The notes: generated by a model not told the origin, from the letters alone. A DNA stretch of 64,000 nt from Actinomycetota bacterium (GCA_035691205.1 DASSJM010000090.1:9059-73058); one strand, 5' to 3'. Positions 3,358-37,360 are shown, counted from the first letter of the stretch. Numbers and translations: made by a program.

Positions 3358-4194
3358 GGCCGGCGCCGATCGAGCGACGATCACCGAGCACCGGGCGTGC
3401 TCGGTCACGTGACGGCTCACGCTGCCGAGCAGCACGCGCGTCACGCCTCGGAGACCGCGGTGCCCGACCACGAGCAGGTCGAACCCGTCGCGCTCGGCGG
3501 CGGCGACGAGCGCGTGCTCGGGACGGCCCATCGCCACGTCGCGGACCGGCGTCACCCCGAGCGCGGCGAGCGCGAGGGCGGAGGCCTCGAGCTCGGGAGG
3601 GCTGGGCTCGTCCGGCCCGAGGGTCCATTCCGCGTCGCGACCGCGGAAGACCGGGATGACGTGGATCAGGTGGAGCTCCGCGCCGGTCACCGCGGCGATC
3701 GACCCGGCCAGGGTGGCGGTGGCGACCGAAGCGTCCGAGCCGTCCACGCCGCACGCGATCCGCGTCGGGAACCCGTCGGGCGCGGCGCGCGCCACGAGCA
3801 CCGAGCAGGGGGCCTGGCCCACCACGTGAGCCGCGGTGCGGCCGAACCGCAGGGCGCCGTGGAGGAGGCCGGTGTCGGGTCCCACGACCAACAGGTCGAT
3901 CCCATGATCGCGTGCCTCCGCGACGAGGACCTCCGCGGGATCGCCGGCGAGGATCCTGGGGCTCGCCTGCACGCCGGCCTCCCGTGGGCCGGCCCCGGCG
4001 CGGTCGAGCGCGGCTTCGGCCTCGGCCTCCACGTCCTCGTCGTGCGCGCGATGGGTGTCGACCACGAACGCGAGGTCGAGGGCGGCACCGGTCGCGGCCG
4101 CGAGGCGACCCGCCTGCCGAGCGGCCTCCGCCGCCCGTTCGGATCCGTCGACGCCGACGAGGATGCGCGAGAAGACCCGGCGGCCCCCCGTCAC
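3343..4194 (-). CDS. Tandem universal stress protein (two UspA domains)
   Basis: ORF 3343..4416 trimmed to GTG 4194, which overlaps the upstream stop as GTGA; the Arg-rich N-terminal run-on was discarded. Two Usp repeats are visible: ILVGVDGSE...LLVVG...CSVLVAR and IACGVDGSD...LLVVGHRG...GSVSRHV...CSVIVAR. Confidence 0.8.
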   Translation of the reverse strand: MTGGRRVFSRILVGVDGSERAAEAARQAGRLAAATGAALDLAFVVDTHRAHDEDVEAEAEAALDRAGAGPREAGVQASPRILAGDPAEVLVAEARDHGIDLLVVGPDTGLLHGALRFGRTAAHVVGQAPCSVLVARAAPDGFPTRIACGVDGSDASVATATLAGSIAAVTGAELHLIHVIPVFRGRDAEWTLGPDEPSPPELEASALALAALGVTPVRDVAMGRPEHALVAAAERDGFDLLVVGHRGLRGVTRVLLGSVSRHVTEHARCSVIVARSAPASAGR

Positions 4195-4898
4195 CGGCCG
4201 CCGGACCTCGGGGCGAGCGCCGTCCACGGGATGGGCATCTCGCCCGGGACGGTGTCGTCGGCCGCGTACGACAGGCGGTCGTTCACGCCGACGACCCCTT
4301 CGACCGAGGTCACGAGCCGCTCCACGATCGGAAGCAGGCTCCGACGCTCGACCTGGCCCTGCAGGCTGACCACCCCGTCGCGAACCACGACCCGGATCGT
4401 ATCCGGATCGATCCACAGCGTTCGCCGGATCACGTCCTCGCGGATCTCCTTGGCGATCGCCGCATCGTCCCGCAGGAACACGCGGAGGAGATCCGCACGC
4501 GAGACGATCCCGACCAGCCGGCCCTCGGCGGTGACGACCGGTAGGCGCTTGACCTCGTTCCGGTGCATCAGCCGGGCGGCCTCGCCCAGCGGAGCGTCGG
4601 GGGCCACCGAGATCACGGGGCTGGTCATGAGCTCGTGCGCGAGATCGCCGGCCGCCTTCGCGCGGTCCTTCGCCCGGTGGCGGCTCTCGAACATGTGCCC
4701 GCCGCCCGCCAGCCCGGGGTCTTCCCGCAGGATCAGGTCGCCCTCGGACACGATGCCGAGGAGCACGTCGTCATCGTCGACCACCGGCAGCGCGCTCACG
4801 TGGTGCTCCTGCATGAGCCGGACGACCTCCTTGAACGGGGCGAGGGCGTCAACGGTCACGACGTCTCGGGTCATCACATCGGACACGGGCGGCTTCAT
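4191..4898 (-). CDS. CBS-pair plus BON domain protein (Hrp1-like hypoxic response protein)
   Basis: ORF 4191..5189 trimmed to ATG 4898, which has a purine-rich SD just upstream. Two CBS motifs (VMTRDVVTV..., LMTSPVISV...) are followed by a BON domain (VVSLQGQV...VEGVVGVNDRL). Confidence 0.8.
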   Translation of the reverse strand: MKPPVSDVMTRDVVTVDALAPFKEVVRLMQEHHVSALPVVDDDDVLLGIVSEGDLILREDPGLAGGGHMFESRHRAKDRAKAAGDLAHELMTSPVISVAPDAPLGEAARLMHRNEVKRLPVVTAEGRLVGIVSRADLLRVFLRDDAAIAKEIREDVIRRTLWIDPDTIRVVVRDGVVSLQGQVERRSLLPIVERLVTSVEGVVGVNDRLSYAADDTVPGEMPIPWTALAPRSGGR

Positions 4899-4944
4899 GT
4901 CGGGCTCCTCTTCGTTCCCACGCCCCCACCGTAGGCTCGGACGG

Positions 4945-4975
4945 GTCCCGCCCCAACGGCCGACCGTCCCGCCCC
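4945..4975. promoter_or_regulatory. Perfect 10-nt direct repeat GTCCCGCCCC x2 (4945-4954 and 4966-4975, 21-nt register) in the divergent CBS/USP - kinase intergenic region; candidate operator
   Basis: Read directly from the sequence. GTCCC is the half-site core of the mycobacterial DosR box. No experimental support. Confidence 0.3.
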
Positions 4976-5076
4976 GAAGGGTCATGGGCCCGAGTCGCAC
5001 GGGACGCACGGCCCGCCCGCGCGAGGCGCCACGGACGGGCTCCGCGAGGTTCGCACCGCGATACGCTGGCCCCGGC

Positions 5077-6678
5077 ATGGACCGACGCGACGAGCTGATC
5101 CGCTCCGGCCTGGCGCTGGCCTCCGAGCTCGAGCTCGAGGCCGTGCTCCAACGCATCATCGCGCTCGCGGTCGAGATGACCGACGCCACCTACGGGGCCC
5201 TGGGGGTGCTCGGCCCGGACGGCTCGATCAGGGAGTTCGTCACGACCGGGGTCACGGCGGCCGAACGCAGGGCGATCGGGCACGAGCCGACGGGGCGGGG
5301 GGTCCTCGGGCTCCTGATCCGCGATCCCCACCCCATCCGGATCGCCAACATCGGGGAGCACCCGGCGTCCTTCGGCTTCCCCCCCAACCACCCGCAGATG
5401 ACCTCCTTCCTGGGCGCACCCGTCACGGCGCGCGGTCAGGTGTTCGGCAACATCTACCTGACCGACAAGCGGGACGGCGGCGGGTTCGACGACGAGGACG
5501 AGGAGGCGCTCGTCGTCCTCGCCGCCCAGGCCGGCACGGCGATCGAGAACGCGCGGCTGTACGAGGAGGCCCGTACCCGTCAACGCTGGCTCGAGGCGGT
5601 CCGCGAGATCGGCGAGGCGATCCTGTCGGGGGCGCATCCCGATGAGGCTCTCCACCTCGTCGCGGAGCGTGCGGCCGCGCTGGTGGAGGCAGATCTCGCG
5701 CTCGTGTCGGTTCCCGAGGGACCCCAGCACCTCCGGGTCGCGTACGCGGAGGGGATGAACGCCGCGCAGATCCTCGGGATGACGTTCCCGACCGAGGGCT
5801 CGATCTCGGGCGAGGTGGTTCGGACCGGGTCCGCCGCCGTGGTCTCGAACGCAGCGACGGATCTCCGCGCCTATGGCCCGTTGGTCGCCGCGGGCGGGTA
5901 CGGGCCCGTGGTCGTCGTGCCGCTGACCGCGCGCGGTCGCGCGTTCGGGACCCTCGCCGTCGCGAACCGCCTCGGGGGGCCCGCCTTCGGCGAGCAGCAG
6001 GTCGCGCTGGTCGGCACCTTCGCCGACCAGGCCGCGGTCGCCCTCGAGTACGCCCGCGCCCAGCAGGAGGTGGAGCGCCTCGCGATCCTCGAGGACCGCG
6101 AACGGATCGCCAAGGAGCTGCACGACGGCGTGATCCAGGCGTTGTTCGCCGTCGGGATGGGCCTCGAGGGCGTGGCCATGGTGACCGGGGACGACGAGCT
6201 CTCGGCCCGGCTCGAGGGGGCGGTGAACGAGATCGACCGCGTGATCCGCGACCTGCGCAACTACATCTTCGGACTGCGTCCGGGGATCCTGGCCGATCGC
6301 GAGCTCGACAAGGCCCTCCGGGCCCTCGCGGAGGAGTTCCAGTCCCGCAGCGGCGTCGTCACGATCGTCGACGTCGACGAGGAGGTCGCGGCGCACCTGT
6401 CCTCGGTCGCCGCCGACGTGATCCAGCTGACGCGCGAAGCTCTGTCGAACGTCGGGCGCCACGCGGCGGCGGACACCTGCCGGGTCTCGCTGCGGCATCG
6501 GGACCACACCGCCGTGCTGGAGGTCGACGACGACGGCCGCGGGTTCGACGCCGCGACCTCGCGCCGCGGAGATGGGCTCACCAACCTGGAGGATCGCGCG
6601 GCGGCCCTGGGCGGGAAGGCCTCCATCGAGTCCACCCCCGCCCAGGGCACCACGGTCCGGATCGAGCTGCCCCTGTAG
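5077..6678 (+). CDS. devS: GAF-GAF sensor histidine kinase, DevS/DosS-like (haem-type GAF-A, HisKA_3, HATPase_c)
   Basis: C-terminal 533 aa of run-on ORF 3397..6678, ATG 5077. GAF-A carries a DevS/DosT-like pocket (HPASFGFPPNHPQMTSFLGAPV...FGNIYLTDK). GAF-B follows, then the H-box ELHDGVIQ and the N/G boxes SNVGRHA, DDGRGF and GLTNLEDR. Confidence 0.85.
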   Translation: MDRRDELIRSGLALASELELEAVLQRIIALAVEMTDATYGALGVLGPDGSIREFVTTGVTAAERRAIGHEPTGRGVLGLLIRDPHPIRIANIGEHPASFGFPPNHPQMTSFLGAPVTARGQVFGNIYLTDKRDGGGFDDEDEEALVVLAAQAGTAIENARLYEEARTRQRWLEAVREIGEAILSGAHPDEALHLVAERAAALVEADLALVSVPEGPQHLRVAYAEGMNAAQILGMTFPTEGSISGEVVRTGSAAVVSNAATDLRAYGPLVAAGGYGPVVVVPLTARGRAFGTLAVANRLGGPAFGEQQVALVGTFADQAAVALEYARAQQEVERLAILEDRERIAKELHDGVIQALFAVGMGLEGVAMVTGDDELSARLEGAVNEIDRVIRDLRNYIFGLRPGILADRELDKALRALAEEFQSRSGVVTIVDVDEEVAAHLSSVAADVIQLTREALSNVGRHAAADTCRVSLRHRDHTAVLEVDDDGRGFDAATSRRGDGLTNLEDRAAALGGKASIESTPAQGTTVRIELPL

Positions 6679-6691
6679 ACGAGCCTCGCCG

Positions 6692-8050
6692 CTACTGCAC
6701 GACCAGCGCCGTCACCATCCCGAACATGCCCTCTGGGCCCTCGACGTGCGGGAGGATGTGGCAGTGGTAGGCCCACACCCCCGGGTAGTCGGCCTTGACC
6801 AGGATGTCGAAGCGTTGCCCGGGCGCAACCGCGAGGGTGTCCGCCATGTACGGCTGGTCCAGGACGAACCCGTCCTGTGCCACCACCTGGAAGTGGTAGC
6901 CGTGCAGGTGCATCGGGTGGATCTGTGCGCCGTCGTTCGACAGGTGGATCAGAACGGTGTCGCCGAGCCCCGCGACGATCGGCTGGGTCCCGGGGAAGTC
7001 CTTGCCGTTCAGCACGTAGCCGGTCGGCCCGTCCCCCAGGAACAGCGTGTGCTCGACGTCGACACCCCCGTAGAGCCGGTCGAACCCGCCCGCCGGCTCG
7101 ATGTACAGCGCCCCGTACATCCCCTTGCCGACCTGCTCGGTGGAGTTGAAGTGGGAGTGGTAGACGTACATGCCCGGCGGGTCCACCACGTCGAACTCGT
7201 AGGTGAAGAACCCCCCAGGCATGATCGGGTCCTGCGTGATGTAGGGCACGCCGTCCATCTCGTTGGGCACCGTCACGCCGTGCATGTGCAGCACGGTGGG
7301 CTGCGTCATCTCGTTGCGGACCACGATCCGAACCCGGTCGCCGGGGTTCACGCGGAGCTCGGGCCCCGGGATCGTCCCGTTGAAGGCCATCCCGTCCACG
7401 AACACGCCGGGCTTCGTCTCCCACTGCACCTCGGTGGCCGTGAGCTCGAACACCTTGACGCCGCCCTCGACCCTGGGCTCGAGCGGCTGGTTGCCCTGGG
7501 CCTCGGTCTCCGCCGGGAACGCGAGCACGCCCGCCTCGTGCCCGTCCAGCATCTCCTGGACGCTCACGCCCGAGTGGTCCATCGAGCCGGTTGGGCCACT
7601 CGCGCCGGTGGCGCCGGTCGCGCCCGCCGCGGCCTCGGAGCCCTCCATGACCATGAGGGTCCCCTCCATCCCGGCCTCGACGTGCCCGGGGACCGTGCAG
7701 TAGGTCCGGTAGTCGCCGGCCGCGAGCGCGGGGACCTCGAGCGTCTCCGTGTCGCCGTTGGCGAGCTCCCGCGTCTCGATCACGCCCTCGCCCGTGTCCA
7801 CCGCGAAGGTGTGCGGCGCCGTGCCCTCGTTCGTCACCTGGAACGTCAGCGTCTGCCCCGCCGGCGCGTGGATCGCCGCGGGGTCGATCGCGAACTCGGT
7901 GAGCGTGACCGCGATCGCCTCGGACCCGACCGCCGCCTGCGATCCCGTCGCTCCCCCACCATCGTCCCCTCCGCCCGTGCAGGCGGCGGTTACGAGCATC
8001 AACACCGCGATCCCCGGCAGCACCAGGACGCGTCGCGTACGCTCACCCAT
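6692..8050 (-). CDS. Lipoprotein multicopper oxidase: N-terminal blue-copper cupredoxin fused to a two-domain MCO core
   Basis: Trimmed to ATG 8050, with GGAGGAG a few nt upstream. Lipobox-like LVTAAC. Cupredoxin with T1 ligands (APHTF, YCTVPGHVEAGM). MCO copper motifs HMHG, YHSH, HPMHLHG and HCHILPH..M. Confidence 0.8.
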   Translation of the reverse strand: MGERTRRVLVLPGIAVLMLVTAACTGGGDDGGGATGSQAAVGSEAIAVTLTEFAIDPAAIHAPAGQTLTFQVTNEGTAPHTFAVDTGEGVIETRELANGDTETLEVPALAAGDYRTYCTVPGHVEAGMEGTLMVMEGSEAAAGATGATGASGPTGSMDHSGVSVQEMLDGHEAGVLAFPAETEAQGNQPLEPRVEGGVKVFELTATEVQWETKPGVFVDGMAFNGTIPGPELRVNPGDRVRIVVRNEMTQPTVLHMHGVTVPNEMDGVPYITQDPIMPGGFFTYEFDVVDPPGMYVYHSHFNSTEQVGKGMYGALYIEPAGGFDRLYGGVDVEHTLFLGDGPTGYVLNGKDFPGTQPIVAGLGDTVLIHLSNDGAQIHPMHLHGYHFQVVAQDGFVLDQPYMADTLAVAPGQRFDILVKADYPGVWAYHCHILPHVEGPEGMFGMVTALVVQ

Positions 8051-20175: not shown

Positions 20176-20940
20176 ATGCGGCGGTTCCTCTGCCTCCTGG
20201 TCGGCGTGCTGCTCGCGCTCCCCGCGTGCACCGGAAGCGGCGACGCGGACGATGGGCCGTCGCCGAGCGTCGTGCCGACGGCGACCACGCCGCCGGACAC
20301 GCCGAGCCCCGAGCCCACGTCGAGCCCGACGCCCGAACCGAGCCCGCGGCCGATCCCGCCCGCGTGGGCGCGCCCGATCGAGGAGGATCTCGACCCGGAG
20401 GCGTTGGCCGACGACGCGCTGATCCCGCCCGGCGCGACGCTCACCGGACGGGTCGAGCTCCCGGCTGCGGGCTCGACCCCAGACCAGGTCGCGGTCGCGT
20501 ACGCCCTCGGCGAAGACCCGTTCGCGGCCGAGCACGGCGTCGCCGTCTGGGAGCGGTTCGCCGACCTACCCGCGTGGAGCGTCGTGTACGCGTTCGTCGA
20601 TCCGCCGGAGGAGGGAGTGCTGGGGATCCGGCTGGAGGCCGGCGACCTGACCGGCGACGGGCACGCCGACGTCCTGACGCTCGAGGACCGCGGCGGCAGT
20701 GGCGCATGCGGAACCTGGACGGTCGTCTCCGGCACCGCCGAGGACACCGCCCGGATCTTCCGCAGGCAGACGTGCGACGCGGAGATCGTGATCGACGACG
20801 GCGGGCTCCGGCTCCGCGAGGCGGTGTTCGAGCCCGACGACCCGCACTGCTGCCCGAGCGCGTTCCGCACGTCGCGGCTCGAGTGGGACGGCGAGCGGTT
20901 CGTCGTCGTCTCGAGCGATGAGACCCCGGCCGGTTCGTAG
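20176..20940 (+). CDS. Secreted lipoprotein with Pro/Thr/Ser linker (LppP/LprE-like)
   Basis: Signal peptide with LALPAC lipobox, a PT-rich linker, and a C-terminal domain with paired Cys (GACGTW, HCCPSAF). Confidence 0.7.
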   Translation: MRRFLCLLVGVLLALPACTGSGDADDGPSPSVVPTATTPPDTPSPEPTSSPTPEPSPRPIPPAWARPIEEDLDPEALADDALIPPGATLTGRVELPAAGSTPDQVAVAYALGEDPFAAEHGVAVWERFADLPAWSVVYAFVDPPEEGVLGIRLEAGDLTGDGHADVLTLEDRGGSGACGTWTVVSGTAEDTARIFRRQTCDAEIVIDDGGLRLREAVFEPDDPHCCPSAFRTSRLEWDGERFVVVSSDETPAGS

Positions 20941-21050: not shown

Positions 21051-21290
21051 ATGGACGCCGCCGTGTGGACCGCGATCGGGTTGCTGGCCGCCACGTCACT
21101 GGGGGCGCTCTTCTAGCTCTGTTCGCGTATCGATGCCCTGGCCACTCGAGTGGACGCGCGGATCGATGGGCTCACGACCAGGATCGAGGCAGGCTTCGCC
21201 CGGGTCGATTCGAGGTTCGACGCGGTGGAGGCTCGGTTCGACGCACTCTCGGGGCGCCTCGACGCCCACCTCGACCAGCACGCCGGCTAG
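21051..21290 (+). pseudogene. Small TM + coiled-coil protein gene interrupted by an in-frame TAG (21114-21116)
   Basis: ATG 21051 encodes MDAAVWTAIGLLAATSLGALF, then TAG. The same frame continues as LCSRIDALATRVDARIDGLTTRIEAGFARVDSRFDAVEARFDALSGRLDAHLDQHAG to TAG 21288-21290. The terminal stop overlaps the rad50 stop as CTAG. Confidence 0.5.
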
Positions 21291-23569
21291 ACGAGCTCGG
21301 CGACGCTGCGGCGGCGTCCGGTCTTCCGGATCAGGATCGTCGCCGGGAACTGGTCCTTCACCCGCTCGGCGTGCGTGATCACGAATAGCTGGTGGAAGCG
21401 GGACGAGAGCCGCCCGAGCGTCTGCACCATGAGGTCCTTGCGCTCCTCGTCCAGCGAGGCCAGCACCTCGTCCAGAACCATCATCCCGACGTCCGCGCCC
21501 GACATGCGGGACAGCTGCGTCGAGATCGCCACGCGGAGCGCCAGGTTGGCCAGGTCGGTTTCGGACCCCGAGAAGCGGTCGATCGGGAAGTACTCGTCGC
21601 CGTCGGCGATCTGGATCGTCAGGGTCTCCTCATCCACCTTCAGGTCGTCGTACTCGTGGTTCGTGAGCTCGCGGAACAGCGCTTCCGCCTCGCGCGAGAG
21701 CTCGGGCCCGATCCGGGCCACCAGGTGGTTGCGGAACCCGTCGAGCAGCATCCCGACCCGCTCCACGTACCGAGCCTCGGAGCGGAGCTCGTCCACCCGA
21801 GCCGCGGTCTCCTTCGCCTGTCGCACCTCGCCGGTCAGCTCCGCCACGCGGCCCTCCGCGTCCTTCGCGGCGTCGCCGGCTCGTCGTTCGACCTCGCGCG
21901 CATCCGCGAGCGTCGTCTCGGCGGCCGCGAGCTCGTCCCGGACCCGCGCGTGCTCCCGCGCGTCGAACGCGAGCCCCTCCGACTCCTCCGCCAGGCTCGC
22001 CAGCTCGCGCTCGAGCGCCTCGATCGTCTCGGCAGCCGCGTCATGGTCCTGCCGAACCTGCTCGAGGTGGTCGCGGCGAGCCCCGAGCTCCGCCACCTTC
22101 TTCGCGACCGCGGTCGCGCGGGCTGCCCCGGCTCGCAGCGCCTCGAGGTCCGGCTCCTCGCCGGCGAACGGCTCCGCGAGCGCCTGGACCTCGGCGCGGA
22201 GCTCGAGGACCTGTTCCTGCAAGCGCGCGAGCCGCGACCCCGCCTCCCGCGCGCGCTCCCCCGCCTCGGCGGCCGCGCGATGCCCCTCCTCGGCCGCGGC
22301 CAGGGCGCCTGCCGCGCGCTTCGCCAGCTTGTCCGCCTCGGCGGCGGCCCGCTTGGCCGCGGTCACCTCGGACCGGCAGTGGCGCAGGTACCCGGCGAAG
22401 TCCTCGCCGAGCGGACGGCCGCACGTCGGGCACGCCTGTGTGGGGTCGGCCTCGGCGGCGCGCGCGAGCCGCTCCTCGGCCTCCGCGAGCAGCCCCGTTC
22501 GGTGAGCGCGTTCGGCCTGCGCCGCCGCCGCCGCCTCCTGGGCCTGCCCGAGCGCGGCCTGGGTCGCCCGCAGCTCCGCGAGCGCCGCCTCCGCGTCCAC
22601 GGCCGGCAGCGCGGCCGCCTGCCGCTCCGCCTCGGCGAGCTTCGACGTCGTCTCCGCGAGGCGCGTCGCCGCCCGCAGCCGATCCTCGACCCCGTCCAGG
22701 CCCTCGAGCTCCTCCTGCAGCGCCGGCAGCTCCGCGAGCTCCGCGGTGAGGGCCTCGACCCGCTCGGCGAGGCCCTGGCGGCGTTCGACCAGCCGGTCCC
22801 GCTCGCCGGTCTTCGCCGTGAGCTGCACCGTCAGCTTCTCGACCCGCTGGCGGGCGGCGTCGAGCGCGCCGAACACCTTCGTCGCCGCGCGGTGCGCGGC
22901 GGTCGCCCCCTTCAGCTCGGCGGCGGCGGCGCGCGCGAGGTCCTTCGCCTCCGCGGCGGCCTCCCTCGCCCCCTTGAGCTCCGCCTCGAGGGCGGCCAGG
23001 TCCGTCACCGCGCCCTCGAGCTGCTGGGCGCTGTCCTTGGTGGCGCGAGCCTCCCGGCGCGCGGCGGCCCGGGCCTCGTCCACCGGCTTGATCCCGAGGA
23101 GCCGCAGGGCCATCTCCTTCCGCCCTCCGGCCGTGAGATCGGAGAACGCGTCGAGCTGCTTCTGCTCGGCGAACACCGACGAGCGGAACACGTGCAGGTC
23201 CATGTGCAGCAGGCGGCGGACCTCCGCGTCGACGTCGGTGGTCCCGGCGGCCAGCTGCAACCCACCTCCGAAGAGCTGGGCGTCGGGCGCATGCCCCTTG
23301 CCCGCGATCGAGCGCCGGACCTCGTACGGCTGCCCCGCGTGCTCGAACGCGATCCGGACCTCGCAGTCCACGAGCACGCCGTGCGTCCGGATCTGGTTGC
23401 GCTTCGTGCGCGTGGCGTTCACCCCGTACAGGCCGAAGGCGATCGACTCCATCAGCGTGGACTTGCCGCTGCCGTTCTCGCCGAAGATGCCGATCACACG
23501 CGCCGGGAGCTCGAGGTCCACCTCCTCGAACACGCGGAAGTTGCGCAGCGAGAGCTCGAGGATCCTCAC
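21287..23569 (-). CDS. rad50: Rad50/SbcC-family ATPase with CxxC zinc hook
   Basis: C-terminal 760 aa of run-on ORF 21287..26083; GTG 23569 overlaps the upstream stop (GTGA). Walker A GENGSGKST, Q-loop FAEQKQ, long Ala/Glu coiled coil with hook CPTCGRP, signature FSGSETD, Walker B MMVLDE, H-loop VITHAE. Confidence 0.9.
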   Translation of the reverse strand: MRILELSLRNFRVFEEVDLELPARVIGIFGENGSGKSTLMESIAFGLYGVNATRTKRNQIRTHGVLVDCEVRIAFEHAGQPYEVRRSIAGKGHAPDAQLFGGGLQLAAGTTDVDAEVRRLLHMDLHVFRSSVFAEQKQLDAFSDLTAGGRKEMALRLLGIKPVDEARAAARREARATKDSAQQLEGAVTDLAALEAELKGAREAAAEAKDLARAAAAELKGATAAHRAATKVFGALDAARQRVEKLTVQLTAKTGERDRLVERRQGLAERVEALTAELAELPALQEELEGLDGVEDRLRAATRLAETTSKLAEAERQAAALPAVDAEAALAELRATQAALGQAQEAAAAAQAERAHRTGLLAEAEERLARAAEADPTQACPTCGRPLGEDFAGYLRHCRSEVTAAKRAAAEADKLAKRAAGALAAAEEGHRAAAEAGERAREAGSRLARLQEQVLELRAEVQALAEPFAGEEPDLEALRAGAARATAVAKKVAELGARRDHLEQVRQDHDAAAETIEALERELASLAEESEGLAFDAREHARVRDELAAAETTLADAREVERRAGDAAKDAEGRVAELTGEVRQAKETAARVDELRSEARYVERVGMLLDGFRNHLVARIGPELSREAEALFRELTNHEYDDLKVDEETLTIQIADGDEYFPIDRFSGSETDLANLALRVAISTQLSRMSGADVGMMVLDEVLASLDEERKDLMVQTLGRLSSRFHQLFVITHAERVKDQFPATILIRKTGRRRSVAELV

Positions 23570-24696
23570 GCCGAGTCGCCCTTGGCCTGCTCGAGGAACG
23601 TCGCGCCCATCTGCACCACGCGCTCGCGCTCGAGCCCGGCGAGGTCCTGGAGCTCCACGTACGCCGCCCACTCCTGCTCGAGCGAGCCCACCGTCGGGCC
23701 GCCCTGGACGGCGAGGGCCTCGGCCCCGTAGTCGGGCTCGACCTGCACCCACAGCGCGCCGGGCACCGCCTCCTGGAACTGCTCGTTCGCCACCTGGCGG
23801 AAGGACGCCGGGTCGACCTCGTTCAGGTACACCCGGACGATCGCCCCCTCGGGCAGCCCTTTCGCTGCGCGCTCGGCCGCGTCCACGAGCTCGCCCGACG
23901 ACATCGAGGCCGCCTGGACGCTCACGGTCGCGAGCGGCCGCTCGCGCGGGTTCTCGACGTGCTCGACCTTCCCCGTCTCGGTGTCCAGGACGACGAGACC
24001 CTTCGCCGTCTCGGGTGAGTCGGCGTAGGAGAACGTGTCCGTCGAGCCCGCGTACCAGGTGCGCCTGGAGACCTTCTGCTGCGCGTGGTAGTGACCGAGC
24101 AGCGCGAGGTCGAACCCCGTGTCGAACTCGGACTCGGCGACCTCGAGCTCGTTGATGTCGCGGTACGCACGCACGGGCAGCGAGGTGAGCGCGACGTGCG
24201 CGAGCAGCAGGTTGGTCGCGTCCTGCCGAACGTTGCGGGCGGCAGCCGCCAACTGCTCCTTGAGCTCGACGACCGAGAGGGTCTGGGGCACGGCGTGCAC
24301 GAGCACCCCGGCGAGTTCCGTCGCCACGGCCTCCATGCGCCACGCGAACGTGACGGCCGGGAACACGCGCTCGAGTGCGTCGTAGGGTGAGCCGGTCCCT
24401 CGGACCCGCGGCGTGTCGTGATTGCCGCTGATCGCCACGCCCCGCAGGCCGGCGTCGGTCAGGCGTTGGATCCCCGCGAGCACGTGTGCGAAGACCCGGT
24501 AGCTCGGCCGGGCGTGGTCGAACACGTCGCCGAGCAACAGGAACCCGTCCGGCTCCAGACGGATCGTCTCGTCCACGGCCCAGGCGAACGAGCGCAGGAA
24601 GTCCTCCTCGCGCACGTTGCGCCCCTGGTCGTCGCGCACGTGGGCGAGGTGCGAACGCCCCAGGTGCGCGTCGCCGAACGCGACCAGCCGCGCCAT
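23566..24696 (-). CDS. mre11: Mre11/SbcD-family metallophosphoesterase nuclease
   Basis: 376 aa. Phosphoesterase motifs GDAHLG, GDVFDH, GNHD and LLAHV..., LLGHYH. The start abuts the herA stop (TAG|ATG). Confidence 0.9.
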   Translation of the reverse strand: MARLVAFGDAHLGRSHLAHVRDDQGRNVREEDFLRSFAWAVDETIRLEPDGFLLLGDVFDHARPSYRVFAHVLAGIQRLTDAGLRGVAISGNHDTPRVRGTGSPYDALERVFPAVTFAWRMEAVATELAGVLVHAVPQTLSVVELKEQLAAAARNVRQDATNLLLAHVALTSLPVRAYRDINELEVAESEFDTGFDLALLGHYHAQQKVSRRTWYAGSTDTFSYADSPETAKGLVVLDTETGKVEHVENPRERPLATVSVQAASMSSGELVDAAERAAKGLPEGAIVRVYLNEVDPASFRQVANEQFQEAVPGALWVQVEPDYGAEALAVQGGPTVGSLEQEWAAYVELQDLAGLERERVVQMGATFLEQAKGDSA

Positions 24697-26262
24697 CTAC
24701 TCCGCGAACCCCTTCGACGACCCCTCGGGCGTCGGCGGCAGCGGCGAGGGTCCCGCGACCGACTTCAGGTAGTCCTCGTACAGGTAGACCTGCGCCGGGA
24801 GCGCGAACGGGGCCTCGAGGTTGGTCACGATCGCCTCGCCGGGCATCAGCGTCTGGATCTCGGGTCCGAGGTTGGAGATGTCCTGCTTGGAGCTGCCGCG
24901 CAGGATGTTGCGGTCCTTCTCGTCGGCCAGGCCGAGGACGAAGAACGTGTTGAACTGCGACAGCAGCTCGTCGTCGATCAGCTTCGGCTGCTGGGAGACG
25001 GCGCACAGGCCGACCTTGAACTTGCGGCCCTCGCGCGCGACGCGCGGGAACACGTTCTCCTCCGCGCGCATGGCGCGCCCGAGCACGCGCTGCGCCTCCT
25101 CGAGCGCGACGAGCGTCGGCGGGAGCGCCGCGAACCGCTCGCGGTCGTCCAGGTAGGCGTCCGAGTAGGCCTCGAGCACGGCCCGCGTGATCACGGAAGC
25201 GACGAGGATCTCCTCGGTGGAGGACAGGCCGCTCGTGTCCACCAGGACGGAGTAGCCGTCCATCAGCTCGCGCACGATGCGCTCGGACAGCGAGGGCTGG
25301 GAGGTGTCGCGCGAGATGCACGGCATGTCGAGGATCCGCTGCGCGCGCCGCTGGATCACCTGCAGCGTGCTGGTCGCGACGTTCAGGTCCTCGGCCAGCG
25401 CGGCGACGTCCGGCTCCTCGCCGACGCGGACGATCCACTCCTCGCGGAAGAAGCGGACCAGCCGGTAGATCGCGTCCTCCTGCGCGTGGCTCCACACGTA
25501 CGCGGTCTGGAGGTCGCCGAGGGTGAGCTCGCCGAGCGAGAGCCGGAGCGCGGTGGCCCCGGCGCCGGCGGCTCGGGTCGCGTAGACCTTCAGGCGCTCG
25601 GCCGCCCACGGGTGGTCGCGCAGTCCGCGGCGGATCCCGCTGCCGCCCTCCAGGTACTCGCCGTGCGGATCGAACAGCAGGCACGCGTACCGCCCCTTGC
25701 TGGAGAGGATCTCGCCCGCGATCACCTTCATCAGGTTGGACTTGCCCATGCCGGTGGTGGCGAACACGCCGACGTGCGACGTCAGCGTCTCCCCCTTGAT
25801 CCCGACCTCCAGGTCGATGGTGTCCTCCCCCGAGCGCAGGAGCCCGACCCGAACGTCGCCCATGCGCTCGCGCAGGAACGCGAAGTCGTCGGTCGTCGGC
25901 GCCGTAACCCGCGCGAACTGCGCCGGCAGTGACTTGGGCTTGCGGAACGCGCCCGCCGCGTCGATGTAGCCGAGCGGCTGGCAGGTCGCCACCTTGTACA
26001 GGCGCTGCTCCGGATCGTGCAGCGTGTACGGGGTGCCCGCGGCGTCGCCGGACATGTAGGCGCCGGCCGTGCGTTCGGACCACGAGGGGTCGCTCGAATC
26101 CGAGCCGTAGGTCACCTGGATCACACGGAACAGGAACCGCCGCCCTCGCTCGGCGTCCTCGCCGGCGAGCAGCTCGCCCAGGAACAGGTCCGTGCCGTAG
26201 AACGAGCGGAACGTCGCCTCCAGCACGCTCTTGCCGAAGATCCGGCCCTTGTAGTCGCTCAT
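24697..26262 (-). CDS. herA: HerA-family hexameric DNA translocase/helicase ATPase
   Basis: 521 aa. N-terminal barrel region, Walker A ATTGMGKSN, HerA-type Walker B LLFDPHGEY, and a C-terminal VSQQP...FVLGL segment. Confidence 0.85.
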   Translation of the reverse strand: MSDYKGRIFGKSVLEATFRSFYGTDLFLGELLAGEDAERGRRFLFRVIQVTYGSDSSDPSWSERTAGAYMSGDAAGTPYTLHDPEQRLYKVATCQPLGYIDAAGAFRKPKSLPAQFARVTAPTTDDFAFLRERMGDVRVGLLRSGEDTIDLEVGIKGETLTSHVGVFATTGMGKSNLMKVIAGEILSSKGRYACLLFDPHGEYLEGGSGIRRGLRDHPWAAERLKVYATRAAGAGATALRLSLGELTLGDLQTAYVWSHAQEDAIYRLVRFFREEWIVRVGEEPDVAALAEDLNVATSTLQVIQRRAQRILDMPCISRDTSQPSLSERIVRELMDGYSVLVDTSGLSSTEEILVASVITRAVLEAYSDAYLDDRERFAALPPTLVALEEAQRVLGRAMRAEENVFPRVAREGRKFKVGLCAVSQQPKLIDDELLSQFNTFFVLGLADEKDRNILRGSSKQDISNLGPEIQTLMPGEAIVTNLEAPFALPAQVYLYEDYLKSVAGPSPLPPTPEGSSKGFAE

Positions 26263-26272
26263 CGCTCCCGCC

Positions 26273-27364
26273 TCATCGGTTCAGCACCTCGTGGAAGTCC
26301 TGGAACAGCACTTCGACGTCGTCCTGCGACATGCCGCGGCGACCGAGCGCGTCGCGGAACGCCCGACGCACGTCGACCACGTCGTAGCCGGTGACCCGGG
26401 CCGTCTGGTGCGCCCGCGCCAGCGGGTACGGATACCCCACGAACGCCGCATCGTCCGCGAGCCCGGCCAGGCGTCCCAGCACCTCGGAGGCCGGCGCGGG
26501 GCCGCTGGCGACGTCGACCCGGAACGCGTACGAGGCGGTCGGCGCGAGGTGCGCGACGAAGATGTCCCCCACGTACAGCCGTCCGAAGACCGGATCCGTC
26601 GAGATCCGGGCGGCCCACGTGGCGTGCCCGAGCTCGCGGTCCCCGCGGCGCTTCACCAGCGTCACGAGCGGCGCGTTCCGCCCCCAGAACAGCGTGGACG
26701 CCTTCACGACCCCGGCGAGCGACACGCCGCGCTCGACGGCCTCGTCGTGGACACGGCGGACGACGACCTGCGGCACGAGGGGCCCGCCGTGCAGCGAGCC
26801 GTCCACGAGCACCAGGTCGCCCGCGGCGGCATCCCGGATCGTGCGTGCCACCTCGGCCCATTCGGCCCACTCGCGGAGGGCGTCGACCGGTCGCGGCATC
26901 TCCGGCAGGCGCTCCGGCTCCTGCCCGCACAGCTCGGTCAGGATCGTCCGGGCGACGGCCTGCATCTCCTCGGGAGAGACCGCCCGCACGGTGAGCGTGG
27001 GCCGCTCGACGACCTCGGTCAGTCCGCCCGCGAACCGGACGCGGGCCGCCCGGTAGGCCGCGACCTGGAACGACCGGCCGTCGGCGACCACGCACGAGCC
27101 ACCGTCGACCGCCCACACCGTGCCGGGCTCGGCCGGGATCACCGGCGTCAGCTCGAAAGCGTCGGGATGCCCCTGCACGACGAGGGCCTCATCCAGGCTC
27201 GCCTGGCCCTCGAGGACGTGGATCTCCGAGGCCGGGCGCTCGAGCAGGTCCACCACGAAGGAGGCGGCGTCGTCCAGCTGGTCGCCCTCGACGAGGTCGA
27301 GGCTGAACAGGCGCGCGCCGGAGGGGTCGGCCACGGGCCGAAGCGTACCCGAGCGCTCCGACAC
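26273..27364 (-). CDS. nurA: NurA-family 5'-3' nuclease
   Basis: 363 aa. NurA-like acidic motifs VWAVDGGS and LVLVDGSLHG, plus a C-terminal FVGYPYPLARAH segment. Lies 10 nt upstream of herA. Confidence 0.8.
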   Translation of the reverse strand: MSERSGTLRPVADPSGARLFSLDLVEGDQLDDAASFVVDLLERPASEIHVLEGQASLDEALVVQGHPDAFELTPVIPAEPGTVWAVDGGSCVVADGRSFQVAAYRAARVRFAGGLTEVVERPTLTVRAVSPEEMQAVARTILTELCGQEPERLPEMPRPVDALREWAEWAEVARTIRDAAAGDLVLVDGSLHGGPLVPQVVVRRVHDEAVERGVSLAGVVKASTLFWGRNAPLVTLVKRRGDRELGHATWAARISTDPVFGRLYVGDIFVAHLAPTASYAFRVDVASGPAPASEVLGRLAGLADDAAFVGYPYPLARAHQTARVTGYDVVDVRRAFRDALGRRGMSQDDVEVLFQDFHEVLNR

Positions 27365-27392
27365 ACCCGGGCATCCGCGGCCTGCCCAGCCC

Positions 27393-35075: not shown

Positions 35076-36317
35076 TCAGGGCAGCCCGGTCAGGCCGCGC
35101 TCGGGCGCGTTGACCAGGACGGCGACGTTGCCCTCGGGGAGCTTCCCCTCCCCCATCAGCTGGTGGGCCTGCGCCGACTCCGCGTAGTCGTACGCGTGGC
35201 CGAGCGTGGTCACGACCCTGCCCTCGCGCACGAGGTCGTTGAACGACGCCGCCTGCTCGTCGTTGAACAGGTGGGAGCCCTGGTAGCGCTTCTGCAGGTA
35301 CCAGAGGTAGCGCACGTCCACCATCGTGTCGTAGCCGGTGGTGCCCGCGCAGATCACGACCATCCCGCCGCGCTCGCACACGAAGATCGAGGTCGGGATC
35401 GTGTCCTGCCCCGGGTGCTCGAACACGATGTTGGGGCTCCGCTTCTCCCCGAGCACCTCCCAGATCGCCTTGCCGAACCCCTTCACACCATCGAACCACG
35501 ACTTCCAATCGCCCGAGTCCCAGGCGGGGGGTACCCCCCAGTGCGAGAACGCGGTCCGGTCGATGTACCCGACGGCGCCGAGCGAGGTGGCGTACTCGCC
35601 TTTCTGGGCGCTGCTCACCACCGCGACGGCCTTTGCCCCCGCGAGCGCGACGAGCTGCACCGCCAGCGATCCGAGGCCGCCCGACGCGCCCCAGACGAGC
35701 ACGACGTCGTCCGGCTTCACGGTGTTCGGCGGCCAGCCGTGGAGCATCCGGTAGGCCGTCGAGCCCGTGAGCGTGGGCGCCGCGGCCTCCTCCCAGGTCA
35801 GGTGCTCGGCCTTGGGCAGGCACTGGTGCGCCTGCACCTTGGCGAACTGCGCGAACGATCCCCAGCAGGAGTCGTACCCCCAGACGCGGAAGCTCGGCGC
35901 CAGGCCGGGGTCGTGCCCGGCCACCACCCAGGGGTCATCGAGGTCCCACTGCCCCGCGTGCACGACGACGTGGTCGCCGACCTTCACGTTGGTCACCTTG
36001 GAGCCGACCGCGTACACGATCCCGGCGGCGTCGGACCCGACGACGTGGAACTCGGTCGGCTCGCCCCATCGCGCCTGGGTCTTGGTCACGTCCACGGGGA
36101 TCCCTCGTGCGGCCCACACGTTGTTGAAGTTCACCCCGGCCGCCATGACCATCACGAGCGCGTCGTGAGGGCCCAGCTCGGGGACGTCGATCACCTCGTC
36201 GACGATCGCATCGTGCGGTTCGCCGAAGCGCTCGGGCCGGACCAGCTGTGCGTGCATCCGGCCGGGAACCTCCCCCACCGGTGGAAGCTCGCCGATGTCG
36301 TACAGGTCCTTGCCCAT
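35076..36317 (-). CDS. ccr: Crotonyl-CoA carboxylase/reductase
   Basis: ORF 35076..37355 trimmed to ATG 36317, with a GGTGGAGGG SD. Contains DLYDIGELPPVGEVP, AAGVNFNNVWAA, WGASGGLGS and RYLWYLQKRYQGSH. Confidence 0.9.
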   Translation of the reverse strand: MGKDLYDIGELPPVGEVPGRMHAQLVRPERFGEPHDAIVDEVIDVPELGPHDALVMVMAAGVNFNNVWAARGIPVDVTKTQARWGEPTEFHVVGSDAAGIVYAVGSKVTNVKVGDHVVVHAGQWDLDDPWVVAGHDPGLAPSFRVWGYDSCWGSFAQFAKVQAHQCLPKAEHLTWEEAAAPTLTGSTAYRMLHGWPPNTVKPDDVVLVWGASGGLGSLAVQLVALAGAKAVAVVSSAQKGEYATSLGAVGYIDRTAFSHWGVPPAWDSGDWKSWFDGVKGFGKAIWEVLGEKRSPNIVFEHPGQDTIPTSIFVCERGGMVVICAGTTGYDTMVDVRYLWYLQKRYQGSHLFNDEQAASFNDLVREGRVVTTLGHAYDYAESAQAHQLMGEGKLPEGNVAVLVNAPERGLTGLP

Positions 36318-36391
36318 GCCCTCCACCCTTCGACGTTTCGGATCGGATGCCCGGCGACGATAGGCGAGGGTCCGAGGGGCCGACAAACCCC

Positions 36392-37360
36392 TCAGGCAGG
36401 TGCCGCCGCAGCGCTCTGCGGGCAGACCGTGCCCCGCGGGCACCAGGTGCAGTACGGCCCGGGACGGAGCGGGATCGGACGGCCGGCGTTGGACGCCGAC
36501 GCGGCGCGGAGGGCCTCGACGACGCGATCGGCGGCGCGCTCGAGCACCCGAGCGTCCACGTCCTCGGCCTGCCACTCCCCCGAGTCCAGGTACAGCGTGG
36601 CCACCCGATACGGCGGCACGCCGAACCGGAAGGCGAGCAGGAGCGCGTAGAACCGCATGTCCTCCGCGTGCTCCGGCCACGCCTTCCCGGTCTTCAGGTC
36701 GATCGCGAGGCGGGTGGCACGCATGGGCTCCGCCGGCACCGACGAACCCAGGACCAGGTCGAGCTGCCCGGTGAGCACGAGCGAGCCGCCGAGCAGCTCC
36801 GCACGCACGTGCCACTCCGTGGACGGTGCGAGCTCTCGCCGCATGAGCCGGAGCGGAGGCATCGTGGCGCGGAACAGCTCGAGCGTCTTGGCCGCGTCCA
36901 TCAGGGTCTCGTCGCGGCGGAGCGGGTCGAGCTCGTCCCAGTATCCGCGGAACCCGTCGTCCTCCACGAGCCGCTCGGCTGCCTGCTCGACGAGGACGTG
37001 GGGGTCGCGATCCTCGCGCCCCGCCACCTCGAGCTCGACCGCCTTGTGGGCGAGACGGCCCGCCGCGAACCGCGCCGAGAACCGGAAGGGACCCCGCTCG
37101 CCGGACCGGACGGCATCGAACAGCCCGGGGCACCGACCCAGGTCGTTCAGGTTGCTCTTGCCGAGCCACAGCGGCTGGGGGAGCTCGAAGGCCCGGGCCG
37201 CTTCCTCCACCCGGTCGCGGAGGCGCGGCACGACCTCCTCGGGGAACATCGGCCGCTCGCCGGTGCCGATCAGTCCTTCGAGGGTCCGGCGTTGCGATGG
37301 GGTGAGCTCGATGGTGGCCTCCACGGCTGGGGATGGTAGGACTAGCCACCGACATGCCAT
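36392..37360 (-). CDS. PD-(D/E)XK nuclease with Cas4/AddB-type four-Cys Fe-S staple
   Basis: ORF 36392..37891 trimmed to ATG 37360 (alternative GTG at 37324). N-terminal Cys (LGRCPG), nuclease motif AIDLKTGK, and C-terminal CTWCPRGTVC, giving the pattern C...CX2CX5C. Confidence 0.7.
   Translation of the reverse strand: MACRWLVLPSPAVEATIELTPSQRRTLEGLIGTGERPMFPEEVVPRLRDRVEEAARAFELPQPLWLGKSNLNDLGRCPGLFDAVRSGERGPFRFSARFAAGRLAHKAVELEVAGREDRDPHVLVEQAAERLVEDDGFRGYWDELDPLRRDETLMDAAKTLELFRATMPPLRLMRRELAPSTEWHVRAELLGGSLVLTGQLDLVLGSSVPAEPMRATRLAIDLKTGKAWPEHAEDMRFYALLLAFRFGVPPYRVATLYLDSGEWQAEDVDARVLERAADRVVEALRAASASNAGRPIPLRPGPYCTWCPRGTVCPQSAAAAPA

Follow-up and report, generated by a model that had tools for sequence, protein, structure and literature searches.

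A chromosomal nurA-herA-mre11-rad50 cluster in a soil actinobacterium, a likely operon for double-strand DNA break processing built like archaeal HerA-NurA/Mre11-Rad50

Introduction

The best-known arrangement of the HerA, NurA, Mre11 and Rad50 genes is that of heat-loving archaea, the Sulfolobus operon being listed as herA, mre11, rad50, nurA (PMC4351679). In S. solfataricus NurA, the roles of residues D58, E116, D133, K202 and Y298 are known by mutation or structure (PMC3326311). Among bacteria, Oceanithermus profundus was noted in 2017 to carry nurA-hepA-sbcD-sbcC, the same four genes in the same order as in the cluster described below (PMC5448004). The NurA-HerA pair of Thermus affects UV sensitivity and DNA transfer and is not an essential resection machine (PMC5448004), while the HerA of Deinococcus radiodurans also works with RecJ (PMC8708640). 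Because of these two observations, the bacterial roles of the proteins may differ from the archaeal one. Since the cluster is widespread in several bacterial phyla, the present locus is offered as a solid case, not an exceptional one.

Organization of the four-gene cluster

The window, a stretch of 64,000 nucleotides analysed as a whole, comes from a high-GC soil actinobacterium. It contains four tightly coupled genes in the order nurA-herA-mre11-rad50, all on the minus strand. The features of the locus are as follows.

27342..27363, minus strand: promoter-like motif TGTCGG-N10-TACGCT, fitting the RecA-NDp/PafBC-type skeleton TGTC-N12-TAnnnT
26273..27334, minus strand: nurA, start probably at GTG 27334 (revised), 353 aa
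26263..26272, minus strand: 10-nt nurA-herA spacer GGCGGGAGCG, resembling a ribosome-binding site (direct sequence reading)
24697..26262, minus strand: herA, FtsK/HerA-family ATPase, 521 aa (DUF87, NCBIfam, solved relatives, motifs)
23566..24696, minus strand: mre11/sbcD-family nuclease, 376 aa (Metallophos, invariant metal ligands, profile matches)
21287..23569, minus strand: rad50/sbcC-family ABC ATPase, 760 aa (AAA_23, SMC_N, SbcC_Walker_B; invariant ATPase motifs)

A preliminary description of this DNA had reported four co-directional minus-strand open reading frames and three close junctions, and all were found where it had placed them. The TGA of nurA is followed by the spacer GGCGGGAGCG and then the herA ATG, the herA TAG directly abuts the mre11 ATG, and mre11 and rad50 overlap in the GTGA at 23566-23569. 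By these junctions the four genes are translationally coupled, and in their clustering and shared direction they resemble the archaeal-type operon. The motifs read earlier (AVDGGS, LVLVDGSL, GMGKSN, LLFDPHGEY, GDAHLG, GDVFDH, GNHD, FSGSETD and CPTC) are all present in the translations, as is GENGSGKST. The proposed family assignments also hold in Pfam profile searches, where each of the four proteins exceeds the gathering score. In sequence searches the nearest solved relative of every one of them is an archaeal break-repair protein, and profile searches rank the relatives alike.

Protein families and conserved residues

The window NurA matches Pfam NurA (PF09376) with 41.5 bits, where the cut-off is 21, and the same family is the precomputed Pfam assignment for 119 of 120 NurA homologues among the matches listed. 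Residues D86, E167, D187, K220 and Y310, which do not vary among aligned sequences from three bacterial phyla, align with S. solfataricus D58, E116, D133, K202 and Y298, and the catalytic residues fall on the 2ygk motifs AIDGGS, E...DGSL and GYPFP. An AlphaFold2 model (pLDDT 77.3, pTM 0.78) indicates the RNase H-like NurA fold. In a Foldseek search of the PDB its top three matches are all NurA structures, namely 2ygk from S. solfataricus (E = 4e-10, TM 0.52/0.59), 3tai from P. furiosus and 7f6d_G from D. radiodurans, followed by Endonuclease V and Argonaute PIWI domains. The protein is a predicted 5'-3' nuclease. An actinobacterial homologue of 77% identity has already been named "DNA double-strand break repair nuclease NurA" by NCBI.

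The gene itself stands as first read, but its start does not. The earlier reading from GTG 27364 gave 363 aa. The promoter-like motif at 27342-27363 overlaps the first 10 codons of that reading, a GTG follows 7 nt beyond it, and, among the matches listed, several of the closest homologues have 353-354 aa; the start was therefore moved, and GTG 27334, giving 353 aa, is probably the true one. Other homologues in that listing range from about 345 to 393 aa.

HerA is placed in its family by the DUF87 central domain (87.6 bits, E = 1.7e-24). Its best NCBIfam matches are models of archaeal HerA for double-strand break repair (HerA_Thermprot, 84 bits with a cut-off of 800; helicase_HerA, 79 bits with a cut-off of 970), so that it falls short of the NCBI equivalog thresholds and belongs to the same family without being an orthologue. 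The third-best NCBIfam match is CedD. The best solved relative by sequence is S. solfataricus HerA (4d2i, 6e-19), and matches to solved HerA proteins lie mainly over residues 340-490. The Walker A motif GMGKSN, the Walker B motif LEEAQ and REGRKF are conserved among close relatives, and the T-G-x-G-K, E-E and E-G-R-K columns remain invariant in a distant alignment; the central domain thus retains Walker A, Walker B and an arginine finger. The protein would be expected to form a hexameric DNA translocase. It is 43-48% identical to proteins from Zixibacteria and Methanomassiliicoccales and so belongs to a HerA subclade distinct from that of Deinococcus and Thermus; no D. radiodurans HerA chain was identifiable among its sequence matches to solved proteins.

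Mre11 matches Metallophos (36.2 bits, E = 1e-8), and residues D9, H11, D57, N92, H93, H167 and H204 are invariant in all 19 sequences compared, which represent Actinomycetota, Bacillota, Zixibacteria and, as a fourth lineage, an archaeon. Calcineurin-like phosphoesterase motifs I-V are present with their metal ligands. A profile of the family scores M. jannaschii Mre11 at 109 bits, P. furiosus Mre11 at 99 bits and E. coli SbcD at 68 bits, and it spans about 260-290 residues of the two archaeal proteins. Rad50 is matched by AAA_23, SMC_N and SbcC_Walker_B, and its N- and C-terminal lobes match solved Rad50 heads. It carries the complete split ABC ATPase, from Walker A, Q-loop and signature to Walker B, D-loop and H-loop (invariant N32-G33-G35-K36, Q136, S667-G668, D700-E701, D707 and H733), together with an invariant, central CPTC zinc hook (C380/C383). 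The Rad50 profile finds M. jannaschii Rad50 as the best solved relative at 188 bits, versus 148 bits for E. coli SbcC. At 760 aa the protein is, as the preliminary description had it, shorter than E. coli SbcC (1048 aa), and its putative coiled coil, judged from composition, would be fairly short.

A promoter-like motif upstream of nurA

The published RecA-NDp consensus is tTGTCRgtg-8nt-TannnT (PMC5656591), and a sequence of this PafBC/RecA-NDp type lies immediately upstream of the revised nurA start. It reads TGTCGGAG-CGCTCGGG-TACGCT at 27363-27342, with GTG 27334 coming 7 nt after. About 30 of 32 related loci have the same motif at the equivalent site, although the spacer and flanks vary. 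The resulting clade pattern, [T/C]GTC[C/G]G-N10-TA[T/C][C/G]CT followed by GTG or ATG after 6-8 nt, has this site as its sole match in the window (0.07 expected from shuffles); its first base is C instead of T in about half of the loci. The looser skeleton TGTC-N12-TAnnnT has only two matches in the window. The second precedes the GTG of a PD-(D/E)XK nuclease gene by 8 nt.

The conserved motif and the closely following GTG together predict damage-inducible, leaderless expression. In this lineage a promoter of the RecA-NDp (PafBC) type, responsive to DNA damage, probably drives all four genes, and the leaderless mRNA would begin at GTG 27334. At the same place, about seven loci of a sister clade carry a LexA-type GAAC-N4-GTTC palindrome. 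The motifs that bear on induction and co-transcription of the operon are accordingly a RecA-NDp-like promoter in the clade and a LexA-like box in its sister. This actinobacterial RecA-independent PafBC-type promoter motif is a new detail of the locus. No PafBC gene was seen in the 64-kb window and no WYL-domain regulator among the window genes scanned. Consensus scans of the region found no σ70-type promoter and nothing notable in terminator-like sites (3, one of them inside herA, versus 2.1 expected). The acyl-CoA dehydrogenase gene ends just 28 nt upstream of the cluster, and read-through transcription is therefore also possible.

Distribution and conservation

Among relatives, 42 of 42 loci with enough flank contain the complete set in this order, an arrangement far beyond chance that agrees with the order first described. 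NurA is upstream of HerA and Mre11 downstream in 61 of 61 related loci, and the median gaps along the cluster are 24, 41 and 11 nt. In seven related loci, unrelated genes lie between herA and mre11, some on the opposite strand, so that co-transcription of all four genes is not obligatory.

Many Actinomycetota have the cluster, as do Bacillota (Pontibacillus, Priestia) and Zixibacteria; it is widespread in several bacterial phyla and not rare. The earlier view of it as a hallmark of thermophilic archaea therefore stands as regards archaeal kinship but not as regards confinement to them, given its occurrence in Actinomycetota, Bacillota, Zixibacteria and Oceanithermus. The window proteins share 20-48% identity with their counterparts in Bacillota and Zixibacteria, and the divergence of the four is broadly parallel lineage by lineage, with some exceptions. 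A Methanomassiliicoccales relative has HerA near Mre11-Rad50 without an adjacent NurA. The closest relatives are carried by uncultured organisms.

The neighbours in the window are housekeeping genes of β-oxidation, the TCA cycle and CoA metabolism, and synteny between species takes in both the locus and its flanks. Relatives share 85-91% identity in HerA, compared with 73-89% in the adjoining thiolase, acyl-CoA dehydrogenase and aconitase, a sign of strong purifying selection and of vertical descent. Full-length plasmid matches occur solely on megabase-scale replicons carrying gyrA/gyrB and murA.

Proposed function and alternatives

Taken together, the cluster is likely to be a chromosomal, vertically inherited operon for double-strand DNA break processing, built like archaeal HerA-NurA/Mre11-Rad50. 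One of the two readings offered in the preliminary description, a complete archaeal-type resection machine in an actinobacterium-like lineage, is thereby supported by families, catalytic residues, the NurA fold, solved relatives, synteny and the promoter motif. The link to desiccation or radiation tolerance drawn there is conjectural. We infer the complexes, the polarity of resection, the damage induction and the single transcript, and take the mechanism from the characterised archaeal and Deinococcus homologues. A Mre11 dimer and the Rad50 ATPase, tethered via the CPTC zinc hook, would recognise, clean and nick the end at the break. A HerA hexamer would then pump the duplex through its pore into a NurA dimer, whose D86/E167/D187 metal site would degrade the 5' strand, or both strands, and this degradation would leave the 3' tail needed by RecA.

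We also infer the importance of HerA-NurA/Mre11-Rad50 relative to RecBCD/AdnAB-type enzymes. In the boldest version, which we regard as speculative and doubtful, it would be the main long-range end-resection system of a large uncultured Actinomycetota lineage, replacing or outranking RecBCD/AdnAB and belonging to the PafBC regulon, and mesophilic archaea (Methanomassiliicoccales) would have exchanged the whole cluster, as a mobile unit, with bacteria (Zixibacteria, Actinomycetota, Bacillota).

A different explanation would treat the cluster as two independent pairs, with NurA-HerA serving DNA transfer, DNA uptake or the processing of stalled forks, Mre11-Rad50 as an ordinary SbcCD hairpin and end nuclease, and adjacency reflecting shared regulation. 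Such roles have been suggested for HepA of Thermus and for CedD-like ATPases of archaea: loss of HepA lowers transformation and transjugation in Thermus (PMC5448004), and CedD is the next NCBIfam match of HerA after the archaeal repair models. The insertions between herA and mre11, the Methanomassiliicoccales locus without adjacent NurA and the SbcCD of D. radiodurans, unlinked to NurA-HerA, can be read the same way. The four genes nevertheless remain adjacent and in order across Actinomycetota, Bacillota and Zixibacteria at such low protein identity, even where genes have been inserted, and in the window the herA stop meets the mre11 start. Their broadly parallel divergence, exceptions aside, is what a co-evolving unit would be expected to show, and Sulfolobus Mre11 is reported to bind HerA physically (PMC2288612). 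Independence of the two pairs is thus quite unlikely.

The other reading in the preliminary description was a defence module that had recruited SbcCD. Here the HerA ATPase and a NurA nuclease effector, with an SbcCD-like pair as reinforcement, would serve to degrade linear DNA brought in by phages or plasmids and not to repair the chromosome. Several defence systems are headed by HerA-family ATPases. The window HerA matches the PADLOC HerA and mad8 models and, by sequence, solved anti-phage HerA proteins (E-values 1e-15 to 1e-7); Rad50 matches LmuB, mad3, DndD and PtuA, and Blackwood et al. raised, as speculation, a further role of archaeal HerA-NurA in the destruction of foreign DNA (PMC3326311). 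The PADLOC matches of HerA and Rad50, however, reflect generic P-loop/SMC similarity with scores no better than those of archaeal repair models, and neither NurA nor Mre11 matched any PADLOC model. The locus has no Sir2, DUF4297 or other known HerA effector and no defence-island context, and upstream of nurA are promoter or operator motifs of the DNA-damage type. The restriction of plasmid matches to megabase-scale replicons also counts against it. With housekeeping neighbours that are syntenic along with the locus, a HerA about as conserved as they are and no homologue among 50,697 phage records, the defence reading is unsupported and very improbable.

Comparison with known systems

The break-processing operon proposed here can be set beside five kinds of system. 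The first is the archaeal operon of Sulfolobus, Pyrococcus and Thermococcus, which has the same four families in one co-directional, tightly packed cluster and whose NurA catalytic residues (D/E/D with K/Y) are conserved in the window protein. According to a review, the four archaeal genes are co-induced by UV; damage-responsive expression is predicted in the window as well, although from an actinobacterial RecA-NDp promoter, unlike in the archaeal operon. Gene order differs (nurA-herA-mre11-rad50 in the window, herA, mre11, rad50, nurA as listed for Sulfolobus), as do the host, a mesophile-type high-GC bacterium, and the length of Rad50 (760 aa, against archaeal equivalog models of about 870-895 positions). 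Window scores lie far below the NCBI archaeal equivalog cut-offs, as with the 84 bits of HerA against 800, and the proteins are therefore distant relatives of the archaeal ones, not orthologue-level matches.

In D. radiodurans and Thermus thermophilus, the NurA and HerA genes lie side by side as in the window, and the D. radiodurans NurA 7f6d_G ranks third among the structural matches of the NurA model, but in both genera the pair is unlinked to sbcCD. E. coli SbcD/SbcC belongs to the same superfamily pair as Mre11/Rad50, with phosphoesterase and ABC-ATPase motifs and a CxxC hook in common. It has no NurA-HerA partner, and E. coli SbcD matches the window Mre11 profile over its first ~95 residues only (68 bits, versus 109 for M. 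jannaschii Mre11). The anti-phage systems Sir2-HerA and DUF4297-HerA share the HerA-family ATPase core, with moderate matches limited to the C-terminal ATPase region. Their partner is Sir2 or DUF4297 where the window has NurA, and the window locus is conserved, vertically inherited and outside a defence island.

The remaining arrangements are those of Oceanithermus, Pontibacillus, Priestia and Zixibacteria, for which no experimental study was found in the literature searched. The Pontibacillus genes are annotated in RefSeq as NurA, ATP-binding protein, metallophosphoesterase and SMC family ATPase, and the Zixibacteria locus has a methyltransferase gene between herA and mre11. Protein identity to the window in this group is just 20-48%, yet the Pontibacillus, Priestia and Zixibacteria clusters, like that of Oceanithermus, have the same four genes in the same order as the window.

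Gene assignments and junctions

The cluster comprises four open reading frames (ORFs) on the minus strand, located where the preliminary description placed them.

21287-23569, minus strand: rad50-like ORF, 760 aa
23566-24696, minus strand: mre11-like ORF, 376 aa
24697-26262, minus strand: herA ORF, 521 aa
26273-27364, minus strand: nurA ORF as first read, 363 aa

Read from the sequence, the nurA TGA is followed by a 10-nt spacer, GGCGGGAGCG, and then by the herA ATG; the mre11 ATG lies directly after the herA TAG; and GTGA at 23566-23569 overlaps the mre11 TGA with the rad50 GTG. The spacer, abutment and overlap originally described are thus exact, and such tight junctions imply a putative translational coupling of the four genes. 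By codon-position GC, third-position values of 0.93-0.97 marked mre11, herA and nurA as real genes, while rad50 was not picked by this filter solely owing to the upstream extension of its open frame. GC content averages about 71% over the window, and the composition profile is unbroken at the locus. Recent horizontal acquisition is unsupported, as the GC of the locus (0.705-0.754) presents no anomaly against the value of about 0.71 for the window.

Profile-HMM searches confirmed all four family assignments above the Pfam gathering scores: NurA with the NurA family (41.5 bits), HerA with DUF87, the HerA central domain (87.6 bits), Mre11 with Metallophos (36.2 bits) and Rad50 with AAA_23, SMC_N and SbcC_Walker_B. 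In NCBIfam, Rad50, Mre11 and HerA fit archaeal break-repair equivalogs best, with scores so far under the cut-offs that the proteins are to be regarded as distant family members and not as orthologues. By sequence, the closest solved relatives of all four are archaeal repair proteins, namely Sulfolobus solfataricus HerA (4d2i, E = 6e-19) and NurA (2ygk, E = 5e-4) and Methanocaldococcus jannaschii Mre11 (E = 1e-7) and Rad50 (E = 5e-22). This archaeal-first ranking by single sequence is kept when profiles built from the bacterial clusters are used, both for Mre11 (M. jannaschii 109 bits, P. furiosus 99, T. maritima 89, E. coli SbcD 68) and for Rad50 (M. jannaschii 188 bits, P. furiosus 156, E. 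coli SbcC 148).

Since NurA was the weakest of the four assignments, it was examined in three ways. In an alignment of Actinomycetota, Bacillota and Zixibacteria proteins, D86, E167, D187, K220 and Y310 are invariant, and the conserved residues match the S. solfataricus NurA motifs AIDGGS, E...DGSL and GYPFP; in the S. solfataricus enzyme, D58, E116 and D133 are catalytic and K202 and Y298 adjoin the active site (PMC3326311). An AlphaFold2 model (pLDDT 77, pTM 0.78) has as its first structural matches three solved NurA proteins, those of S. solfataricus, P. furiosus and D. radiodurans. A homologue 77% identical to the window protein carries the NCBI name "DNA double-strand break repair nuclease NurA". 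In the corresponding alignments, the metal ligands of Mre11 are all invariant, as are all ATPase motifs and the C380/C383 hook of Rad50.

Genomic setting

The neighbours of the four genes are housekeeping genes. Upstream are genes for an FtsH-like protease, a NUDIX hydrolase, a thiolase and an acyl-CoA dehydrogenase; downstream are a thioesterase and an aconitase; and further out are pyruvate:ferredoxin oxidoreductase, carboxylases and methylmalonyl-CoA mutase. In many close relatives, nurA is separated from the acyl-CoA dehydrogenase gene by about 3 kb of opposite-strand genes, whose products are a histidine-kinase-like protein and proteins of coiled-coil or membrane type (3575-6703 in the related locus L001, with equivalents in L005, L007 and L010-L012). 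The window (27365-27392) and loci L003, L009, L013 and L016 are free of this block, so that 28 nt separate the two genes. Directly downstream of rad50, a convergent plus-strand ORF (20176-20940) encodes a 254-aa product that matches no Pfam family and whose position is kept in close relatives at 35-58% identity.

Distribution and synteny

Hundreds of metagenomic proteins are 79-99% identical to the window HerA, and the named ones are labelled Actinomycetota. When one genome per GTDB species was scanned, HerA relatives were found at no fewer than 512 places in bacterial and archaeal genomes. The best 80 of these at least 512 loci are all from metagenome-assembled genomes (MAGs), nearly all labelled Actinomycetota, with HerA identity falling from 91% to 55% and some Acidimicrobiales among the 55-59% group. 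A synteny survey, which the preliminary description had proposed, found the order nurA-herA-mre11-rad50 in all 42 of these 80 loci with enough flank to be evaluated; NurA precedes HerA in 61 of 61 loci, and Mre11 follows it in 61 of 61. Only close relatives also keep the metabolic genes on either side, and the four genes therefore form the conserved unit. HerA (85-91% identity) is at least as conserved as the flanking enzymes (73-89%).

Beyond the Actinomycetota, this four-gene order recurs on megabase replicons of Pontibacillus sp. ALD_SL1 and Priestia megaterium FDU301. The Pontibacillus cluster, named in RefSeq as NurA, ATP-binding protein, metallophosphoesterase and SMC family ATPase, lies beside gyrB/gyrA and murA. 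A Zixibacteria MAG shares this arrangement except for one inserted methyltransferase gene. In a Methanomassiliicoccales archaeon, HerA is grouped with an ion exchanger, Mre11 and Rad50 but lacks a neighbouring NurA, and a Woesearchaeota HerA is solitary. The distribution of the cluster among bacteria is much wider than the preliminary description assumed: Actinomycetota, Bacillota and Zixibacteria all carry it.

The window HerA is 48% identical to that of Zixibacteria, 43% to that of Methanomassiliicoccales and 34% to that of Pontibacillus, and Mre11 and Rad50 are likewise nearer the Zixibacteria and archaeal proteins than the Bacillota ones. By pairwise scores, the window proteins are about equally close to the Methanomassiliicoccales and Zixibacteria sets and farther from the Bacillota set. 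The Zixibacteria (L083) and Methanomassiliicoccales (L084) proteins are closer to each other (HerA 53%, Mre11 42%, Rad50 33% identity) than either is to Actinomycetota or Bacillota proteins, a likeness that points to a possible cross-domain transfer of the cluster.

In seven related loci (L022, L026, L028, L057, L069, L071 and L076), inserted stretches of 0.7-2.3 kb part nurA-herA from mre11-rad50. The inserts include an aminotransferase (L028), a VapBC-like antitoxin/PIN pair (L026), a putative lipoprotein on the opposite strand (L057), opposite-strand MarR and NUDIX genes (L069) and, in L076, the NUDIX gene. As these inserts are unrelated, a single transcript is not essential, though adjacency is retained. 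Some Acidimicrobiales loci seem to have mre11 and rad50 1.8 kb apart; this is a tblastn artefact, as the conserved Rad50 C-terminus alone aligned. Several HerA relatives have about twice the normal length: P0299 (1036 aa) contains the intein/LAGLIDADG Pfam domains PF14528 and PF14890, which suggests an intein within HerA, and P0177, P0222, P0226 and P0265 (945-1157 aa) may be fusions.

A predicted DNA-damage promoter

A scan for σ70-type promoters found none, and terminator-like sites (3 against 2.1 expected) are uninformative. The motif upstream of nurA was detected solely by comparing the DNA just upstream of the gene across the clade with HerA identity of at least 78%. In about 30 of 32 loci, the pattern [T/C]GTC[C/G]G-N10-TA[T/C][C/G]CT is followed after 6-8 nt by GTG or ATG, with variable spacer and flanks. 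It has a single match in the window, against 0.07 expected from shuffles. The broader skeleton TGTC-N12-TAnnnT has one match besides that motif, upstream of a nuclease gene.

27363-27342, minus strand: promoter-like motif TGTCGG-AGCGCTCGGG-TACGCT, followed after 7 nt by GTG 27334
37354-37333, minus strand: second skeleton match, TGTCGGTG-N8-TACCAT, near-perfect RecA-independent (RecA-NDp) type, 8 nt upstream of a GTG
36392-37324, minus strand: PD-(D/E)XK (RecB/Cas4-like) nuclease ORF, ~310 aa from the GTG after the second motif

The nurA motif agrees with the published RecA-independent promoter consensus, tTGTCRgtg-8nt-TAnnnT (PMC5656591), through which PafBC activates its target genes (PMC6789036) and which has been reported outside mycobacteria in other Actinobacteria (PMC8223512). 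Because the -10-like hexamer is close to the start codon, a leaderless nurA mRNA beginning at GTG 27334 is predicted. The identity of nurA stands; the motif and GTG 27334 indicate that the gene probably starts at 27334, in place of the 363-aa start first read, and encodes 353 aa, and several of the closest NurA homologues are 353-354 aa. In this lineage, expression of the cluster seems to be tied to a DNA-damage promoter of actinobacterial type, a reading that yields the concrete prediction of DNA-damage induction dependent on PafBC.

The PD-(D/E)XK nuclease may be another damage-inducible, leaderless repair gene; its 499-aa length in the mechanical ORF list is probably wrong. A 759-aa open frame at 35076-37355 (minus strand) is a high-GC artefact: only residues ~395-703, in the C-terminal half, match zinc-type alcohol dehydrogenase domains, and its upstream part overlaps the nuclease gene in a different frame.

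In a sister clade (about 63% HerA identity, loci L039-L049), a LexA-type GAAC-N4-GTTC palindrome, often GAACGTGTGTTCG, replaces the RecA-NDp-like motif in about seven loci, no more than about 120 nt from where nurA starts. The palindrome was not found near the nurA start in Acidimicrobiales loci. Judged from these motifs, the regulatory wiring of the cluster seems to differ between clades.

Proposed function and alternatives

By homology with archaeal and Deinococcus systems, Mre11-Rad50 would recognise and trim a broken end, a HerA hexamer would feed the duplex into a NurA dimer, and NurA would digest the 5' strand to produce a 3' tail for RecA. The two gene pairs could instead function independently, as Thermus and Deinococcus data lean towards; with adjacency retained across phyla and the four proteins diverging broadly in parallel, this is unlikely. 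A defence role, raised initially as a HerA-nuclease module that had recruited an SbcCD pair, is highly improbable and was rejected, since NurA and Mre11 match no defence model in PADLOC, the locus lies outside any defence island, a search of 50,697 phage records gave no matches and conservation is high and vertical.

Comparison with known systems

In the window and its relatives, the full cluster of the proposed end-resection machine is a stable, strongly conserved chromosomal feature. Reviews (e.g. PMC7752040) still assign resection to HerA-NurA in archaea and to RecBCD/AddAB/AdnAB in bacteria. In Oceanithermus profundus, according to the Thermus HepA paper (PMC5448004), homologues of sbcD and sbcC lie downstream of nurA-hepA. 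A literature search on NurA/HerA and Actinomycetota classes, with older key work outside its coverage, found no dedicated study of the actinobacterial cluster. Three things are added here: how broadly the cluster is conserved, a predicted DNA-damage promoter, and culturable carriers, P. megaterium FDU301 and Pontibacillus sp. ALD_SL1, which would offer genetic access to the bacterial role of the complete machine alongside canonical bacterial resection enzymes. The finding is real and correctly identified: the cluster belongs to a known system, here in a lineage for which no description of it was found, and it extends known biology without being a new kind of system.
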